Position numbers and translations under genes: made by a program | From: Bacteroidales bacterium | Lineage (GTDB): Bacteria > Bacteroidota > Bacteroidia > Bacteroidales > DASVHX01 | Assembly (NCBI GenBank): GCA_038246075.1 | Contig: JBBRRV010000003.1 | Span: forward strand, 1 to 58,878 | DNA length: 58,878 bases | Direction of reading: 5' to 3' | Notes under the pieces: model-generated | Database searches by the model: none | What the model was told of the DNA's origin: nothing | The model's input: only the letters and a program-made list of their open reading frames with translations | In this document: in pieces, positions 53,034 to 57,303 of the stretch | How positions within the stretch are numbered: the first letter of the stretch is position 1 | Layout of the letters: every line of letters starts with the position of its first letter

Positions 53034-53066
53034 ATTCACGGGGTGACTTCAAGTCACCCCGTGAAT
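53034..53066. other. Perfect 33-nt palindrome (15-bp stem, 3-nt loop)
   Basis: ATTCACGGGGTGACT TCA AGTCACCCCGTGAAT, read directly. It sits in a locally GC-richer patch (about 52940-53190) of an otherwise AT-rich non-coding stretch. There is no flanking T-run on either strand. Confidence 0.7.
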
Positions 53067-53378: not shown

Positions 53379-53531
53379 TTAATATCTGCTTCCTGAAATA
53401 AGCCTTAATAATATAGCGATGACTGCAATGACAAGCAGTATATGAATAATGGCACCCACGCTGAATGCGAAATATCCGATTGCCCATAAGATGATTAAAA
53501 CGACTGCGACTAAATATAATAGACTGCCCAT
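53379..53531 (-). CDS. lmo0937-family small membrane protein (50 aa)
   Basis: Hand translation gives MGSLLYLVAVVLIILWAIGYFAFSVGAIIHILLVIAVIAILLRLISGSRY*. This matches the conserved two-helix miniprotein pattern (..ILWAIGFF......IH.LLVIAVI..LL..I.G) of the lmo0937/DUF5670 family as I remember it. It is not in the ORF track (under 60 aa). Confidence 0.7.
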   Translation of the reverse strand: MGSLLYLVAVVLIILWAIGYFAFSVGAIIHILLVIAVIAILLRLISGSRY

Positions 53532-53676
53532 GATGTTGATTTTTTTAGGTGTTTAATTGATTAAAGAGAAAGTTAAGTAAAGTTGTATATTAAAAGTATA
53601 TTGTGTTTATGTGCGCTTCATGATGGTTTGAATCATTTGCTTACAGCAAAGATAAAGCGCACACTGCTGATGAACT

Positions 53677-53718
53677 TTACACAATTCTTAAAAATAGTTG
53701 CATCATTCACACATTTGC
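53677..53718 (-). promoter_or_regulatory. Conserved 42-nt promoter-associated element, copy D (upstream of the lmo0937-type gene)
   Basis: The minus-strand reading is GCAAATGTGTGAATGATGCAACTATTTTTAAGAATTGTGTAA. It is followed after exactly 22 nt by the -7-type box TATCTTTG (53654-53647). Confidence 0.6.
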
Positions 53719-53733
53719 ATGCTGGTATGCTGC

Positions 53734-54072
53734 CTATTCATATGCGCTTTTAATAACCGTTTGAATCATTTTGAACCGCCCGGCGGGTTTTATCATGTTA
53801 GGCTCGTGAGCAGGTATTACAATTGATTGGCCTGCCAGCAGAACATTGGAATATCCATTGATCACAATCTCAGCACTGCCTTCTATGATCTGAACAAAAG
53901 TGTCAAAAGGAGTGGTCCTTTCTGTTAAGCCTTCGCCATTGTCGAAGGACATGAGGCTGATATTTCCTGTTGGTTTTTTCAAGATCGTTTTGATAACCAC
54001 AGAATTTTTCAGATATTCAATAATTTCAGCTGTGTTATGTGCTTTTGCTTTATCAAGTTCTTTGTTATCCAT
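53734..54072 (-). CDS. Cupin-domain protein (112 aa), paralog 1
   Basis: It is a single small beta-barrel with the pattern G.aei.i.G.......Gqsi.iPA. It is about 70% identical to the 55017..55355 product. Confidence 0.75.
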   Translation of the reverse strand: MDNKELDKAKAHNTAEIIEYLKNSVVIKTILKKPTGNISLMSFDNGEGLTERTTPFDTFVQIIEGSAEIVINGYSNVLLAGQSIVIPAHEPNMIKPAGRFKMIQTVIKSAYE

Positions 54073-54110
54073 GATGCAAATCTTCGTATTTCAAAATAAT
54101 GAAAGCTAAA

Positions 54111-54138
54111 TCAAAAAGAAGGGAATAAAATCCCCTCT
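54111..54138 (-). terminator. Probable Rho-independent terminator after the coiled-coil lipoprotein gene
   Basis: On the minus strand the hairpin is AGAGGGGA-TTTTAT-TCCCTTCT (one G.T pair) followed by TTTTTG. It lies 21 nt after the stop at 54159. Confidence 0.5.
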
Positions 54139-54158
54139 TTTTAATTTTGCTCTTTTAC

Positions 54159-54623
54159 TTATTTTTTATGCTCAACCGTAAAGTCAGTCAATGATTGTCC
54201 GAGATCGTTCATGTCCTTGTTAAATTCTTTCTGGAATGCCTCCCAATCGCTCTGACGTGTTTCATAGTTATCCATCCTCGTCTTCAGGTCCTTGTTTTTT
54301 TGCTCCAGGGTCTCGATTCTTTTTTCGTATACGGCATCAAGATCAATTATTCCGGGCTTTTTCATCTTTAATCTTAATTCTGCTATGCGGATTTCATTCT
54401 TCTTGATTTTTAAATCAGTTTCACTCTTGAACATTTTCCATTCTTCAGCAGTGGCTACTTTTTGGGCTTCAGCATCATTCTGCACAGCTTCCAGGTTTTG
54501 CTCGGCATCCTGCAATTTAGCTTCAGCAGCTTCTTTTTTTTGAGCAGGTGAACTGCATCCGGCAAAGACAGTTACAAGTATGAATATTGTTGCTATAGCG
54601 AGGGTGAAGATTGTTCTTTTCAT
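54159..54623 (-). CDS. Coiled-coil lipoprotein (unknown function)
   Basis: The likely start is the ATG at 54623 (MKRTIFTLAIATIFILVTVFAGCSSP, a lipobox). The remainder is a Lys/Glu/Gln-rich helical sequence. Confidence 0.6.
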   Translation of the reverse strand: MKRTIFTLAIATIFILVTVFAGCSSPAQKKEAAEAKLQDAEQNLEAVQNDAEAQKVATAEEWKMFKSETDLKIKKNEIRIAELRLKMKKPGIIDLDAVYEKRIETLEQKNKDLKTRMDNYETRQSDWEAFQKEFNKDMNDLGQSLTDFTVEHKK

Positions 54624-54720
54624 TTTTAATGGTTTTAAATATTTTAAAAATTGCACAATGTTCCGAATTTCTTCCCGCATGAAACTGTCCTCGCAGGTGG
54701 AATTTGGAAAATGAAGTAGA

Positions 54721-54906
54721 TTATAGCTCTCCTATAATCTTGTGCAGTTCATCTTTTGTTTTTCCCAGTTTGGTTTGAAGACGTCCATACAACTCATCTT
54801 CTTTTCCCTCTGTAAACATGAGGTCATCGTCAGTTAGTGCTGCAAACCGCTGTTTAAGTTTGCCTTTCATTTCATTCCAGTTTCCTTTTATTTCGGTCGT
54901 GTTCAT
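54721..54906 (-). CDS. csbD: CsbD-family general stress protein (61 aa)
   Basis: It matches the CsbD pattern: [53 protein letters not shown]. The tracked ORF begins at an upstream GTG (54939); the ATG at 54906 gives the canonical length. Confidence 0.85.
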
Positions 54907-54973
54907 TTTTTTTGAAGTTAGATGTGAAAACGGTTTCACACAACAAAGTTAATTCTCACCCTACCGGTAAACA

Positions 54974-55015
54974 TTACACAATTCTATAAAAGAGTTACAT
55001 GATTCACACATTCGC
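54974..55015 (-). promoter_or_regulatory. Conserved 42-nt promoter-associated element, copy C (upstream of csbD)
   Basis: The minus-strand reading is GCGAATGTGTGAATCATGTAACTCTTTTATAGAATTGTGTAA. It is followed after exactly 22 nt by TAACTTTG (54951-54944). It abuts the stop codon of the upstream cupin gene. Confidence 0.6.
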
Positions 55016-55016
55016 T

Positions 55017-55355
55017 TTATTCGTAACCGCTTTTTATCACAGTTGCGATCATTTTGAAACGCCCGGCTGGCTTCACATAACTGGGTGAATGGGCTGGGAT
55101 TACAATTGATTGTCCTGTTACCAGGGGATGTGATTCACCGTTGATAACAATGTCGGCTTGTCCGTCGATGATCTGAGCGAAGGTGTCAAAAGGCAATGTT
55201 TTTTCGACCAATCCTTCTCCTTTATCTATTGACATGACGCTGACAGTTCCTGTTGGTTTTTTTAATATGGTAGTGATGACCACAGAATTGGGTACATATT
55301 CGATAATTTCAACAGTGATGTAGGTGATTGATTTTTCAAGTTCTTTAGGATCCAT
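55017..55355 (-). CDS. Cupin-domain protein (112 aa), paralog 2
   Basis: It has the same length and register as 53734..54072, with 78 of 112 residues identical by hand alignment and no gaps. Confidence 0.75.
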   Translation of the reverse strand: MDPKELEKSITYITVEIIEYVPNSVVITTILKKPTGTVSVMSIDKGEGLVEKTLPFDTFAQIIDGQADIVINGESHPLVTGQSIVIPAHSPSYVKPAGRFKMIATVIKSGYE

Positions 55356-55633
55356 GATATATCGTTTTTAATACCATCCCGGATAACGTTCACTAAAATT
55401 AATCTGTTAATAATTTGTTTTTTAAAGGTCAGATGGAATAAGCCATGATAAAGCATTTTGTCATATCAATTGGTGTTTTTAAAATCATGGCTATATATTT
55501 TGTGGCCGGATGTATCCATGATATAGCCCCTGGAAAGAACAGCACAATGATGATTATTTAGTTCAGGCATGATTGTTGCCATCATGCTGATGTTTTATCC
55601 TTACAAAGGTGTTGCTTTTGATTCCTGAAAGCG

Positions 55634-55675
55634 TTACACAATTTTGGGAAAGATTTACATTATTCACACATTTGC
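55634..55675 (-). promoter_or_regulatory. Conserved 42-nt promoter-associated element, copy A (upstream of cupin paralog 2)
   Basis: The minus-strand reading is GCAAATGTGTGAATAATGTAAATCTTTCCCAAAATTGTGTAA. It is followed after exactly 22 nt by CACCTTTG (55611-55604). Confidence 0.55.
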
Positions 55676-55681
55676 GACTCC

Positions 55682-55723
55682 CAAAATGTGTGAATGATGT
55701 AAATTATTTAAAAAATTATGTAA
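55682..55723 (+). promoter_or_regulatory. Conserved 42-nt promoter-associated element, copy B (upstream of the OmpA-like gene)
   Basis: The plus-strand reading is CAAAATGTGTGAATGATGTAAATTATTTAAAAAATTATGTAA. It is followed after exactly 22 nt by GAATTTTG (55746-55753). It is back-to-back with copy A, 6 nt apart. Confidence 0.55.
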
Positions 55724-55840
55724 CACTTGTTTGCCGTCATGGGGCGAATTTTGCAAAATATTATTGATCAAAACCAGATGGATGGTTGAAAAGTTAAACA
55801 AACTTCAATCCATTAATTATAAACAATTAAAACAATTATC

Positions 55841-56512
55841 ATGAAACGATTAAAAATGAGTATGATCATGCTTTTATCCGGAGCAATAATGCTTTCCAGT
55901 TGTGCATCATTAAACAAAACCCAAAAAGGTGCAGGAGTCGGTGTAGTAGCCGGCGGTGCCATGGGTGCAGTTGTTGGCAAGGTAGCAGGTAACACGGCAC
56001 TGGGTGCAATTATCGGAGCTGCAGTCGGCGGAGCCACAGGTGCTGTGATCGGCCATAAGATGGACAAACAGGCAGAGGAAATTAAAAACAAGGTTCCTGA
56101 TGCAAAGGTAGAGCGTGTAGGCGAAGGAATCGTTGTTGAATTTAACAGCAATATTCTGTTTGGAGTTGACAAATCGGCGCTGTCATTAGATGCCAAAACG
56201 AACCTGAACAAACTGGTTACAGTTTTAAACTCATATCCTGAAACAAATATTGAAGTTCAGGGTCATACCGACAACACCGGATCTGAAGCATACAACAGTA
56301 AATTGTCTGTTCGCCGTGCCAGTTCAGTATCAAGTTACCTCAGAGGCCAGGGAATTTCCGGAAGCCGCATTAGTAATAGAGGTTTTGGCGAATCAGCACC
56401 TAAATATAGCAACGACGACGAAAATGGTCGTTCACAAAACCGCAGGGTTGAATTTTTGATCACTGCCAATGAAAAAATGAAGGCCGATGCTGCAAAAGAA
56501 GCAGGCAAATAA
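55841..56512 (+). CDS. OmpA-family lipoprotein with an N-terminal glycine-zipper segment
   Basis: It has the lipobox LSSC and a Gly-zipper GAGVGVVAGGAMGAVVGKVAGNTALGAIIGAAVGGATGAVIG. The OmpA_C domain carries VQGHTDNTGSEAYNSKLSVRRASSV and NRRVEF. Confidence 0.9.
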   Translation: MKRLKMSMIMLLSGAIMLSSCASLNKTQKGAGVGVVAGGAMGAVVGKVAGNTALGAIIGAAVGGATGAVIGHKMDKQAEEIKNKVPDAKVERVGEGIVVEFNSNILFGVDKSALSLDAKTNLNKLVTVLNSYPETNIEVQGHTDNTGSEAYNSKLSVRRASSVSSYLRGQGISGSRISNRGFGESAPKYSNDDENGRSQNRRVEFLITANEKMKADAAKEAGK

Positions 56513-56613: not shown

Positions 56614-57303
56614 ATGAAAAACAAACTGATTTCAATTTTAATGATTTTAATGCTTTCAGCTTCCTATGCAATGGCTCAAAGTTACGATAATGCAAAAATG
56701 TCCTTTGGTGTTCAGGGAGGTATTAATTTCCAGAATCTGAACGGAAAAGATGCTAACGGAGACGCGCTTAAGAATGACATGATCCTTGGATACCACGCCG
56801 GGGTTAATGCGATGATACCTATCGTACCGGAATTCTTTTTTCAGCCGGGGTTAATGTACAGCACTGCTGGTGCAAAGAATTCGACGACTGTATTAGGTAC
56901 AACATTTACAACTACAACCAAGCTTTCTTATATCCAGGTTCCTTTGAACTTTGTATATAAAGGTGCCTTGGGTAGCGGTTTTGTGATGGTTGGATTTGGT
57001 CCCTATGTTGGATACGGCATCGGTGGCAAGGTATTAACAGAAGGCGGTAATGTATCGCTCGACAGGAAAATTAAATTTAAAAGCACAGTGGAATCAAGTG
57101 ATGACCAAACCGTGCCCTACTTCAAAGCATTGGATGCTGGCGCTGGTGTTTTTGCCGGTTACCAGATGGGAAGCGGGATATTTGTACAGTTGGATACACA
57201 ATTTGGTTTGCTGAAAATTAATCCTAAGGATAATACAAATTCAAATGATAAAGCATCTGTCAAAAACACAGGCTTTGGTCTGTCACTTGGATACAGGTTC
57301 TAA
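56614..57303 (+). CDS. Outer-membrane beta-barrel (porin-family) protein
   Basis: It has a signal peptide ending AMAQ, alternating amphipathic beta-strand patterns and a terminal aromatic residue (..LSLGYRF). Confidence 0.75.
   Translation: MKNKLISILMILMLSASYAMAQSYDNAKMSFGVQGGINFQNLNGKDANGDALKNDMILGYHAGVNAMIPIVPEFFFQPGLMYSTAGAKNSTTVLGTTFTTTTKLSYIQVPLNFVYKGALGSGFVMVGFGPYVGYGIGGKVLTEGGNVSLDRKIKFKSTVESSDDQTVPYFKALDAGAGVFAGYQMGSGIFVQLDTQFGLLKINPKDNTNSNDKASVKNTGFGLSLGYRF

Follow-up and report, generated by a model that had tools for sequence, protein, structure and literature searches.

The locus raises the question of whether a short element repeated four times among small stress-type genes is a regulatory site and, if so, what kind of site it is and which factor reads it. 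A preliminary description had proposed four copies of a 42-nt element, each exactly 22 nt upstream of a Bacteroidota −7 box, and had named an activator site or an extended alternative-sigma promoter as the two readings. We located all four copies at the same coordinates and on the same strands in the window (the whole 58,878-bp stretch of DNA that was analysed). The copies and the features around them are as follows.

53379–53531, minus strand: DUF5670 / lmo0937-family membrane miniprotein, 50 aa, behind copy D
53677–53718, minus strand: element copy D; −7 box TATCTTTG at 53647–53654, predicted start ~53642
53734–54072, minus strand: cupin paralog 1, 112 aa, without an element of its own, within a tandem duplicate
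54108–54147, minus strand: terminator-like hairpin and T run, closing the csbD-lipoprotein unit
54159–54623, minus strand: sll1863-like coiled-coil lipoprotein, 154 aa, downstream of csbD
54721–54906, minus strand: csbD, 61 aa, first gene behind copy C
54923–54940, minus strand: stem-loop TGTGAAA-CCGT-TTTCACA in the csbD leader, beginning at the predicted +1 of the copy-C transcript
54974–55015, minus strand: element copy C; −7 box TAACTTTG at 54944–54951, predicted start ~54939
55017–55355, minus strand: cupin paralog 2, 112 aa, ~244 nt downstream of the copy-A start
55634–55675, minus strand: element copy A; conserved core reaching 55629, −7 box CACCTTTG at 55604–55611, predicted start ~55599
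55682–55723, plus strand: element copy B; conserved core reaching 55728, −7 box GAATTTTG at 55746–55753, predicted start ~55758
55841–56512, plus strand: OmpA-family lipoprotein with glycine zipper, 223 aa, behind copy B
56614–57303, plus strand: OMP beta-barrel protein, 229 aa, after the OmpA-like gene; no element of its own detected

Copies A and B are divergent and 6 bp apart; copy C begins 1 nt past the cupin-2 stop codon, and copy D 15 nt past that of cupin-1. A scan of the 58,878-bp window with a degenerate 39-nt consensus (at most three mismatches) returned these four matches and no further copy, and 100 shuffles returned none. Recomputation again gave 29 of 42 positions as invariant and exactly 22 nt between element and −7 box in all four copies; the boxes fit nAnnTTTG, and all end in TTTG. 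Pairwise identity between the copies is 32–36/42 within the element, 5–13/22 in the spacers and 7–9/30 in the 30 nt upstream.

The gene identities of the preliminary description (DUF5670/lmo0937, two Cupin_2 paralogs, CsbD, an sll1863-like coiled-coil lipoprotein, and OmpA with a glycine zipper) held. The placement of cupin paralog 2 under copy A is the weakest of the four assignments, given the distance of ~244 nt to its start codon; the ~250-nt leader between promoter and gene is unconserved except for a 40-nt match in one further locus (L089), and elsewhere the cupin-2 family is the commonest gene behind the element. The predicted start of copy B lies 83 nt from the OmpA-like ATG, and the pair of OmpA-like and OMP barrel genes also follows an element copy in Alkalitalea saponilacus (L128). 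Homologs of the sll1863-like lipoprotein occur in 23 related loci. A 47-aa ORF after the DUF5670 gene is probably spurious (homologs in 0 of 200 loci). The cupin structure model had a pLDDT of 61.6, too low for a fold search, and a profile search of the PDB with the cupin returned only uncharacterised structural-genomics cupins (3rns, 1yhf and 2ozj).

A core-pattern scan of GTDB genomes gave at least 119 loci, and among the matches listed ~115 belong to Bacteroidota, from at least six orders; a single match in Thermoanaerobacter looks like chance. The 22-nt (or 21-nt) spacer to the −7 box is kept in 306 of 351 distinct copies (87%), with TTT[GA] of the box at offset 26 (270 copies) or offset 25 (36 copies). 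The spacer sequence itself is unconserved and carries almost no information content. The element was defined by a pattern and a PWM derived from itself, so conservation at the pattern-fixed positions is partly circular; positions 4–6, 23, 26, 33–37, 43–47 and 66–72 are conserved though they lie outside the search pattern. A same-strand ORF begins within 400 nt of 146 of 155 copies, its ATG a median of 39 nt past the box.

The same gene families recur behind the element in other genomes, which supports the proposal that it links small stress genes. The 254 downstream ORFs include those for cupins (30), DUF5670 (24), CsbD (18), OmpA-glycine-zipper proteins (14), B12-radical-SAM/DUF4070 proteins (14), ice-binding-like proteins (12), AraC paralogs (8), OMP barrels (8) and YtxH (4), with single cases, judged by eye, of Dps-like, bacterioferritin-like, BON-like, YceI-like and MlaE-like proteins. 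With at least 119 loci, a fixed spacer, an orientation toward ORFs and recurrent gene families, the element neither sits at random positions nor is confined to a local duplication, two of the outcomes that, by the preliminary description, would have refuted its proposal. On these comparisons it is most likely the marker of a phylum-wide Bacteroidota stress regulon. Cultured carriers of the element or the candidate regulator described below include Maribellus, Alkalitalea, Carboxylicivirga, Ferruginibacter and Lacihabitans.

Within the element, the idea of two half sites stood, with changes to their unit and spacing. The TGTGTRA-like half sites are 30 nt apart start to start, not 31, and a better-supported unit is the direct repeat AATnrTGTAAC at positions 12–22 and 33–43, spaced by 21 bp, the two units agreeing with the consensus at 10 of their 11 positions. 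Full conservation is seen in the distal site, with another TGTGAA 9 bp ahead of it; the proximal site is half-conserved. A conserved 3' extension lengthens the element from 42 to 47 nt.

The −7 box of the 351 copies (positions 65–72; frequencies A66 0.88, T69 0.98, T70 0.98, T71 0.83 and G72 0.62) reads nAnCTTTG and is of the sigma-A type TAnnTTTG. In Bacteroidota the −7 box spans about −12 to −5, counted from the start site (PMC9723704). With the box at positions 65–72 and the start site so predicted, the element extends from about −76 to −30 and the proximal TGTAAC (positions 38–43) falls at about −39 to −34. TTTG is absent near −33 in the 351 copies, where positions 41–44 read AA[C/T][A/G]; the nearest TTG occupies positions 35–37, 27 nt from the box. 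Downstream of the box, a conserved 5' hairpin (GTGAAAAT..ATTCAC) begins 5 nt past the box end in 19 promoters and 8 nt past it in 10, an indirect indication in favour of the start sites predicted 4–8 nt beyond the box. Peat and wetland metatranscriptome contigs on a related locus (L144) contain csbD-like RNA at a word depth of up to ~990; these pieces come from several strains and begin inside conserved coding sequence, and some contigs cross the element.

The one regulator gene tightly linked to the element encodes an uncharacterised AraC-family protein of ~186 aa with an HMA-like N-terminal domain. It is present in 22 of the at least 119 loci fetched by the DNA motif alone. In the reverse direction, 73 of 80 metagenome loci fetched by the AraC-like protein alone contain the element (123 copies in 427 kb), and loci fetched by the protein from two isolate genomes hold 2–3 copies each. 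In 56 of the 80 protein-fetched loci the start of the element falls exactly 8 nt short of the AraC ORF's end, so that the stop codon TGA forms element positions 10–12. Some AraC paralogs have the element ~80 nt upstream of their own ATG, an arrangement that suggests autoregulation. No other regulator or sigma-factor family is consistently present among the recurrent neighbours. The 58.9-kb window contains no AraC homolog (a relaxed tblastn gave nothing below E = 2.5), and the link to the regulator is therefore drawn wholly from other genomes. The adjacency could also mean that the AraC gene is only the first member of a conserved cluster, with the true regulator elsewhere.

The protein consists of the HMA-like βαββ domain of ~45 residues, a long connecting helix and a C-terminal double helix-turn-helix domain. 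The profiles HTH_18 and HTH_AraC match it; NCBIfam and PDB sequence searches returned generic AraC DNA-binding domains only, below every family cutoff. In the structure model (pLDDT 85) the C-terminal domain matches the DNA-binding domains of AraC, MarA, SoxS and Rob (structural matches 1bl0, 7w5w and 1d5y). At the N-terminus, a MVCxRC motif of the MxCxxC type occupies the position of the HMA metal site, between β1 (residues 2–4) and α1 (residues 11–23) of the model; it is invariant in 20 Marinilabiliales-type homologs, and many paralogs have Ser for the first Cys. Pfam HMA was not reported on the N-terminus at E ≤ 0.01; in Foldseek the CopA metal-binding domain and Atx1 were matched only weakly (E 0.2–0.4, TM 0.54–0.6 on the target), and β4 is lacking from the model.

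Four other explanations bear on these observations. The four copies might stem from local duplication, or belong to a dispersed repeat of the MITE or REP kind, and have no regulatory role; a unit of cupin, element and promoter is indeed tandemly duplicated in the window (53643–54075 versus 54940–55358, 72–79% identity), and copies C and D agree at 13 of 22 spacer positions. This duplication does not include copies A and B, however; conservation is confined to the element and does not extend to flanks or spacer, and the identical geometry precedes unrelated genes at hundreds of loci in different orders. A duplication artefact is in our view highly improbable, given an element present at no fewer than 119 loci, almost all of them in Bacteroidota. 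Action as RNA, for instance as a structure in the 3'-UTR or leader of the preceding gene, would fit the position of the element directly after stop codons (of cupin genes in the window, of AraC genes elsewhere) and the metatranscriptome contigs that cross it. The conservation is nevertheless at the level of sequence, the repeat is direct rather than inverted, and the element always points to a −7 box and an ORF downstream of it. It contains no dyad symmetry of the CRP/FNR type (TGTGA-N6-TCACA), and a hairpin TAACTT...AAGTTA suspected by eye inside it was rejected, the mutual information there lacking complementary covariation; the pairs with the highest mutual information reflect shifted registers of the −7 box instead of helices. 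No Rfam family matched anywhere in the window at gathering thresholds. Since the element shows neither Watson-Crick covariation nor an Rfam match, we take it for a DNA site, and a role as RNA is scarcely to be expected.

If the element is a DNA site, it might instead be the promoter of an alternative, ECF-like sigma factor, with TGTAAC as the −35 and CTTTG as the −10 element. TGTAAC at about −39 to −34 does resemble ECF −35 elements (that of Bacillus SigX is TGTAAC), the usual −33 TTTG is missing, and general stress regulons elsewhere are sigma-driven. Yet the box nAnCTTTG is the sigma-A −7 consensus at the sigma-A distance, a CGT-type −10 is not conserved, TGTAAC stands 21 nt from the box where 16–17 nt would be expected, conservation out to −76 with an internal 21-bp repeat is unlike a sigma promoter, and no sigma or anti-sigma genes are enriched in 199 loci; such a promoter thus appears improbable. 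Somewhat less so, though still unlikely, is the binding of a different transcription factor, such as a LytTR- or OmpR-type response regulator, with the AraC gene a regulon member or neighbour. A 21-bp direct-repeat periodicity is typical of LytTR sites, histidine-kinase and receiver ORFs (the latter receiver-only, ~144 aa) occur in 27 of the at least 119 motif loci, a hybrid kinase adjoins the csbD promoter in two further loci (L006 and L007), and in Maribellus comscasis the AraC gene has a LytTR gene nearby. These two-component ORFs are, however, mixed in length and type and have no fixed position relative to the element, and no second regulator family recurs in the 80 AraC-centred loci. A cognate, autoregulated factor is the better fit to a stop codon in exact register at 56 of 80 loci and to the element upstream of AraC paralogs. 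Of the two readings first offered, the activator site is favoured over the alternative-sigma promoter: the box fits sigma-A, no sigma gene is enriched nearby and an AraC-family gene is tightly linked.

We thus consider that the element is probably the upstream half of an activator-dependent sigma-A promoter, serving a Bacteroidota general or envelope stress regulon under an AraC-type activator. Each of the tandem sites would be taken by one DNA-binding domain, as happens with AraC at araI1-I2. The factor would activate rather than repress: the proximal repeat would take the −35 position in place of the missing −33 TTTG, two helical turns (21 bp) from its partner, and the proximal DNA-binding domain would touch RNA polymerase and bring it to a promoter unable to fire alone. 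In the window, the csbD-lipoprotein unit, DUF5670, the OmpA-glycine-zipper gene (perhaps with the OMP barrel) and probably cupin-2 would be co-induced, possibly by a stress or redox/metal signal, by a regulator encoded outside this contig. A bolder version, which we put forward as doubtful, makes the HMA-like/AraC protein a master general-stress regulator that senses redox state or metal through its CxxC, binds a 47-bp tandem site constrained to the point of encoding the protein's own last residues and stop codon, and uses in trans, as ligand-binding partner, the small stand-alone cupin that is the commonest gene behind the element (a 'split AraC').

Full-text literature searches, including the papers on start-site mapping in F. 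psychrophilum and B. thetaiotaomicron, found no description of the motif or the regulator, a search with the hexamer found primer lists only, and no general stress regulator or stress-promoter signature for Bacteroidota was found. To our knowledge, no counterpart of sigma-B, RpoS or EcfG has been described in this phylum, whose members are major components of soil, sediment, freshwater, marine and gut communities. The element is an easily scanned signature, ~30 near-invariant bases in fixed register with a −7 box, from which the regulon would be readable directly in any Bacteroidota genome or MAG. It would give a common regulatory context to 'hypothetical' small proteins (DUF5670, cupin, DUF4070 radical-SAM and ice-binding-like), it names one regulator gene that is testable in existing cultured carriers, and it would supply the genetic toolbox of this phylum, in which standard parts fail, with a promoter that depends tightly on its activator.

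In its cargo (CsbD, YtxH, Dps-like, OmpA/glycine-zipper, small membrane and BON-like proteins) and in its many dispersed single-gene promoters with one common signature, the putative regulon resembles those of sigma-B in Firmicutes, RpoS in Gammaproteobacteria and EcfG-NepR-PhyR in Alphaproteobacteria. Those systems use an alternative sigma factor with its own −35 and −10 elements, whereas here an upstream activator site would act on a core promoter that is seemingly sigma-A. The canonical Bacteroidota sigma-A promoter (−33 TTTG / −7 TAnnTTTG) shares the nAnCTTTG −7 box with an ATG a median of 39 nt downstream, but where it has the −33 TTTG the element has the proximal TGTAAC repeat. PM2 (Ryan et al., 2020; PMC7366714), a non-canonical promoter motif of Bacteroides thetaiotaomicron, is enriched at oxidative-stress and stationary-phase genes; it is near-palindromic, with its centres at −10 and −30. 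The element is likewise a non-canonical Bacteroidota promoter signature at stress genes; unlike PM2, it pairs a direct repeat spanning −76 to −30 with an ordinary −7 box.

MarA, SoxS and Rob are also small AraC-family stress activators, and the candidate regulator differs from them in its additional N-terminal domain. The marbox is an asymmetric site of ~20 bp, with two elements ~10 bp apart, that overlaps the −35 or lies further upstream; the element is unrelated to it in sequence, consists of two tandem sites over 42–47 bp and is much more conserved. A further close comparison is with araI1-araI2 of the E. coli pBAD promoter. The candidate regulator differs from AraC in having the HMA-like domain and long helix instead of the cupin sugar-binding domain, and the element stands on a Bacteroidota −7 type promoter, serves stress proteins rather than a catabolic operon, often holds the regulator's stop codon and has no looping operator identified for it. 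The likeness lies in the half-site geometry of pBAD class II activation: two direct-repeat half sites ~21 bp apart, a regulator with a double helix-turn-helix AraC domain, and a strong distal site followed by a weaker proximal site that overlaps the −35 position.

We located the 42-nt element (47 nt with its conserved 3' extension) at the four positions previously assigned to it, interspersed with two paralogous cupin genes:

53677-53718, minus strand: element copy D
53734-54072, minus strand: cupin-1
54974-55015, minus strand: element copy C
55017-55355, minus strand: cupin-2
55634-55675, minus strand: element copy A
55682-55723, plus strand: element copy B, divergent from copy A and 6 bp away

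A 39-nt degenerate consensus (up to three mismatches) matched exactly four times in the 58,878-bp window and never in 100 shuffles. The preliminary description correctly counted 29 of 42 invariant positions among the aligned copies and correctly placed a sigma-A type -7 box (CACCTTTG, GAATTTTG, TAACTTTG and TATCTTTG) exactly 22 nt downstream of each, but its half-site start-to-start distance of 31 nt is actually 30 nt. Pairwise identity is 32-36/42 in the element, 5-13/22 in the spacers and 7-9/30 in the upstream flank. The neighbouring genes agree with the earlier naming: CsbD, an sll1863-like coiled-coil lipoprotein, a DUF5670/lmo0937 miniprotein, two cupins of 112 aa and a glycine-zipper OmpA protein, whose gene precedes one for an OMP beta-barrel. 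A perfect 16-bp inverted repeat (ATTCACGGGGTGACTT / AAGTCACCCCGTGAAT, arms 1 nt apart) lies at 53034-53066, between a SusC-like gene and the DUF5670 unit.

The assignment of copy A to cupin-2 is the weakest of the four and needs one correction: ~244 nt separate the copy from the cupin-2 ATG. This leader (55356-55604, minus strand) is unusually long compared with the 4-138 nt of 30 other cupin promoters. Within it are internal hairpins (e.g. GGCTATAT...ATATAGCC) and, 62 nt ahead of the ATG, another box-like sequence, GACCTTTA; only 40 nt of the leader are similar to another locus (L089; L numbers denote related loci fetched from other genomes or metagenomes).

A cupin gene with its downstream element and promoter is duplicated in tandem (53643-54075 versus 54940-55358, 72-79% identity). 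This local duplication relates copy C to copy D and explains the element only partly, for these two copies; copies A and B lie outside it. Cupin-1 lacks an element of its own and begins 36 nt after a terminator-like hairpin (54108-54147).

Local duplication as the sole origin of the element, raised in the preliminary description, was checked by looking elsewhere. When one genome per GTDB species was searched for the core pattern GYGTRAATNATGYAA-N16-TGTAA, the element proved to be kept in at least 119 loci, ~115 of them labelled Bacteroidota. Among the matches listed, these carriers comprise environmental Bacteroidales and Marinilabiliales, Chitinophagaceae, Saprospiraceae, Prolixibacteraceae, Flavobacteriia and Cytophagia; the other labels are one Chlorobiales MAG, one Ignavibacteria MAG, one 'Saccharibacteria' contig and one Thermoanaerobacter. 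The Thermoanaerobacter match has no downstream box and appears to be a chance hit. The contig labelled Candidatus Saccharibacteria (L106, CAVXOV010000044.1) carries the element with a typical Bacteroidota AraC-like gene and is probably mis-binned. At cupin-ortholog loci (71-79% identical) of Saprospirales MAGs and other metagenomes, the element lies upstream of ytxH-ompA...cupin or csbD-(lipoprotein)-cupin. Conservation with fixed box geometry in many loci, including loci fetched by protein similarity, contradicts a duplication artefact.

Among the matches listed, 155 distinct pattern-scan copies are also conserved outside the search pattern (AAT 4-6, T23, T26, AAkTTr 33-37, CACTT 43-47), with an A.CTTTG box at 66-72 and near-zero information at 48-64; 146 of the 155 have a same-strand ORF that begins no more than 400 nt away, its ATG a median of 39 nt past the box. 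A PWM, built like the pattern from the element itself, yielded at least 351 distinct copies across all collected loci; all counts from the pattern-scan and protein-based collections are lower bounds. In these copies the start of TTT[GA], counted from the element, is at offset 26 for 270 and offset 25 for 36; every other offset accounts for at most 19. With the sigma-A -7 box set at -12 to -5, as in the F. psychrophilum TSS map (PMC9723704), the element extends from about -76 to -30 relative to the predicted start. A direct repeat, AATnrTGTAAC, occupies positions 12-22 and 33-43, two helical turns (21 bp) apart; an extra TGTGAA lies 9 bp upstream of the distal repeat, and the proximal repeat is half conserved and occupies the usual place of the -33 TTTG. 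The collected copies show no complementary covariation inside the element, which contradicts an RNA element, and the window has no Rfam match; the element thus behaves like a DNA site bound by a protein rather than like a structured RNA.

A ~180-186-aa AraC-family protein, 60-77% identical across orders, is encoded in 22 of the at least 119 motif-fetched 8-kb loci. Among the matches listed it is the second most widespread ORF family, behind a heterogeneous kinase/receiver cluster. In one arrangement (L046, L054, L106) the element lies ~80 nt upstream of the AraC-like gene's own ATG, which suggests autoregulation. In another, the AraC-like ORF terminates within the element's first 12 nt (...L-E-N-V-TGA, with GTG-TGA at positions 7-12; L018, L019, L046, L048, L057, L086, L099 and 56 of L129-L208), placing the next gene under the element's predicted control, so that one stretch is both coding sequence and cis-regulatory site. 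Reciprocally, 73 of 80 metagenome loci fetched by AraC-like protein similarity alone contain the element (123 copies in 427 kb), which starts exactly 8 nt before the ORF end in 56 of the 80 (all among the matches listed). The isolate genomes of Maribellus comscasis and Alkalitalea saponilacus have two to three copies per protein-fetched locus, one of which precedes the same OmpA-like/OMP-barrel pair as in the window. The genes at the regulator share a strand, in the order araC, cupin and next DUF5670, csbD or ytxH, and each has an element to itself; among the matches listed, the cupin is the gene most often directly 3' of the AraC-like gene. We found no homolog of the regulator encoded in the 58,878-bp window, and the proposed element-regulator link draws on other genomes.

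The element may instead be bound by a different transcription factor, for example a response regulator, as two-component ORFs are common near it; these ORFs are, however, heterogeneous and hold no fixed position. The sigma-A type of the box, the gap of 21 nt, conservation extending to -76 and the lack of linked sigma genes among the loci examined argue against an alternative-sigma promoter. Near the AraC-like gene, the protein-fetched loci contained no recurrent sigma factor or second regulator family among the matches listed.

With more than 8,000 clusters at E <= 1e-20, the AraC-like family is very large; it bears generic names only, and NCBIfam and PDB sequence searches returned only the generic AraC DNA-binding domain. 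In an AlphaFold model (pLDDT 85), the predicted C-terminal domain overlays the AraC, MarA, SoxS and Rob DNA-binding domains, and the N-terminal part is modelled as a beta-alpha-beta-beta unit that leads into a helix of 40 residues. Between the modelled beta1 and alpha1, the position of metal binding in HMA domains, lies an MVCxRC motif. Foldseek gave weak matches to the metal-binding domain of CopA and to Atx1, and many paralogs have Ser for the first Cys.

Hairpins of 5 bp or more begin no further than 10 nt from the box in 45 of 326 element promoters (~14%, among the matches listed), and 33 of the 45 are of one type, GTGAAAAT..ATTCAC, in which the first G is at +5 (19 cases) or +8 (10 cases) from the end of the box. 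Carriers include L032, L038, L044, L069, L087, L102, L115 and others, as well as window copy C (54923-54940, minus strand, from the predicted +1 of the csbD mRNA). The stems show compensatory changes, with loops of 3-8 nt and G-U pairs in 21. Because of the variable loops and G-U pairs, a protein operator is less favoured than an RNA stem-loop at the 5' terminus; such structures are known to stabilise mRNA, and this hairpin is probably one of them. Its fixed register lends indirect support to the predicted start site.

First ORFs downstream of element copies (at least 254 in the pool)
Cupin, same family as the window's: 30
DUF5670/lmo0937: 24
CsbD: 18
OmpA-glycine-zipper: 14
B12-binding radical-SAM with DUF4070: 14
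Ice-binding-like T9SS proteins: 12
Small secreted membrane protein: 8
AraC-family paralogs: 8
OMP beta-barrels: 8
YtxH: 4

Single downstream cases resemble, by eye, Dps, bacterioferritin, BON, YceI, MlaE, aldehyde dehydrogenase and a DnaJ-type protein. Statistics on neighbouring genes extend the list by the sll1863-like lipoprotein (11-23 loci, among the matches listed), by GH130 accompanied by a large glycosyltransferase, and by Usp-like and Mla-like proteins. Judged by homology, this cargo consists of general, envelope and osmotic-type stress genes, in agreement with the window's own genes. The element also lies upstream of GH130 and large GT4-type glycosyltransferase genes in L003 (4969-5010), L072, L127 and L099; these adjoin a GH100 invertase-like gene in M. 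comscasis, which hints that compatible-solute metabolism is part of the regulon. In alignment, the 112-aa cupin has a single invariant His (H89), with Ser/Asp at the canonical cupin HxH, and its PDB relatives (3rns, 1yhf, 2ozj) are uncharacterised. At the related peat locus L144 (3596-3650), csbD-like transcripts reach a word depth of ~880-990 in a peat metatranscriptome, so family members are strongly expressed in situ.

The open-access literature yielded no published description of the element or regulator, which is absence of evidence, not proof. Six promoter motifs are on record for F. psychrophilum (three sigma-A variants, sigma-54, TAnnTTGY type and ECF type; PMC9723704), and the element differs from each. 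It differs also from the B. thetaiotaomicron PM2 motif, which is near-palindromic and located at -10/-30. The araI-like geometry, the sigma-A type -7 box and the lack of a -33 element together point to a class II activator-dependent promoter. We infer that the AraC-like protein, probably a dimer via its long helix, would occupy both repeat sites and recruit the sigma-A holoenzyme, and that the protein's small N-terminal domain would determine which signal it answers to, possibly redox or metal. At araI1-I2, AraC binds tandem sites spaced by 21 bp, the distal strong and the proximal weaker and overlapping the -35 element; our element has the same tandem orientation and spacing, a strong distal site and a weaker proximal site over -35.
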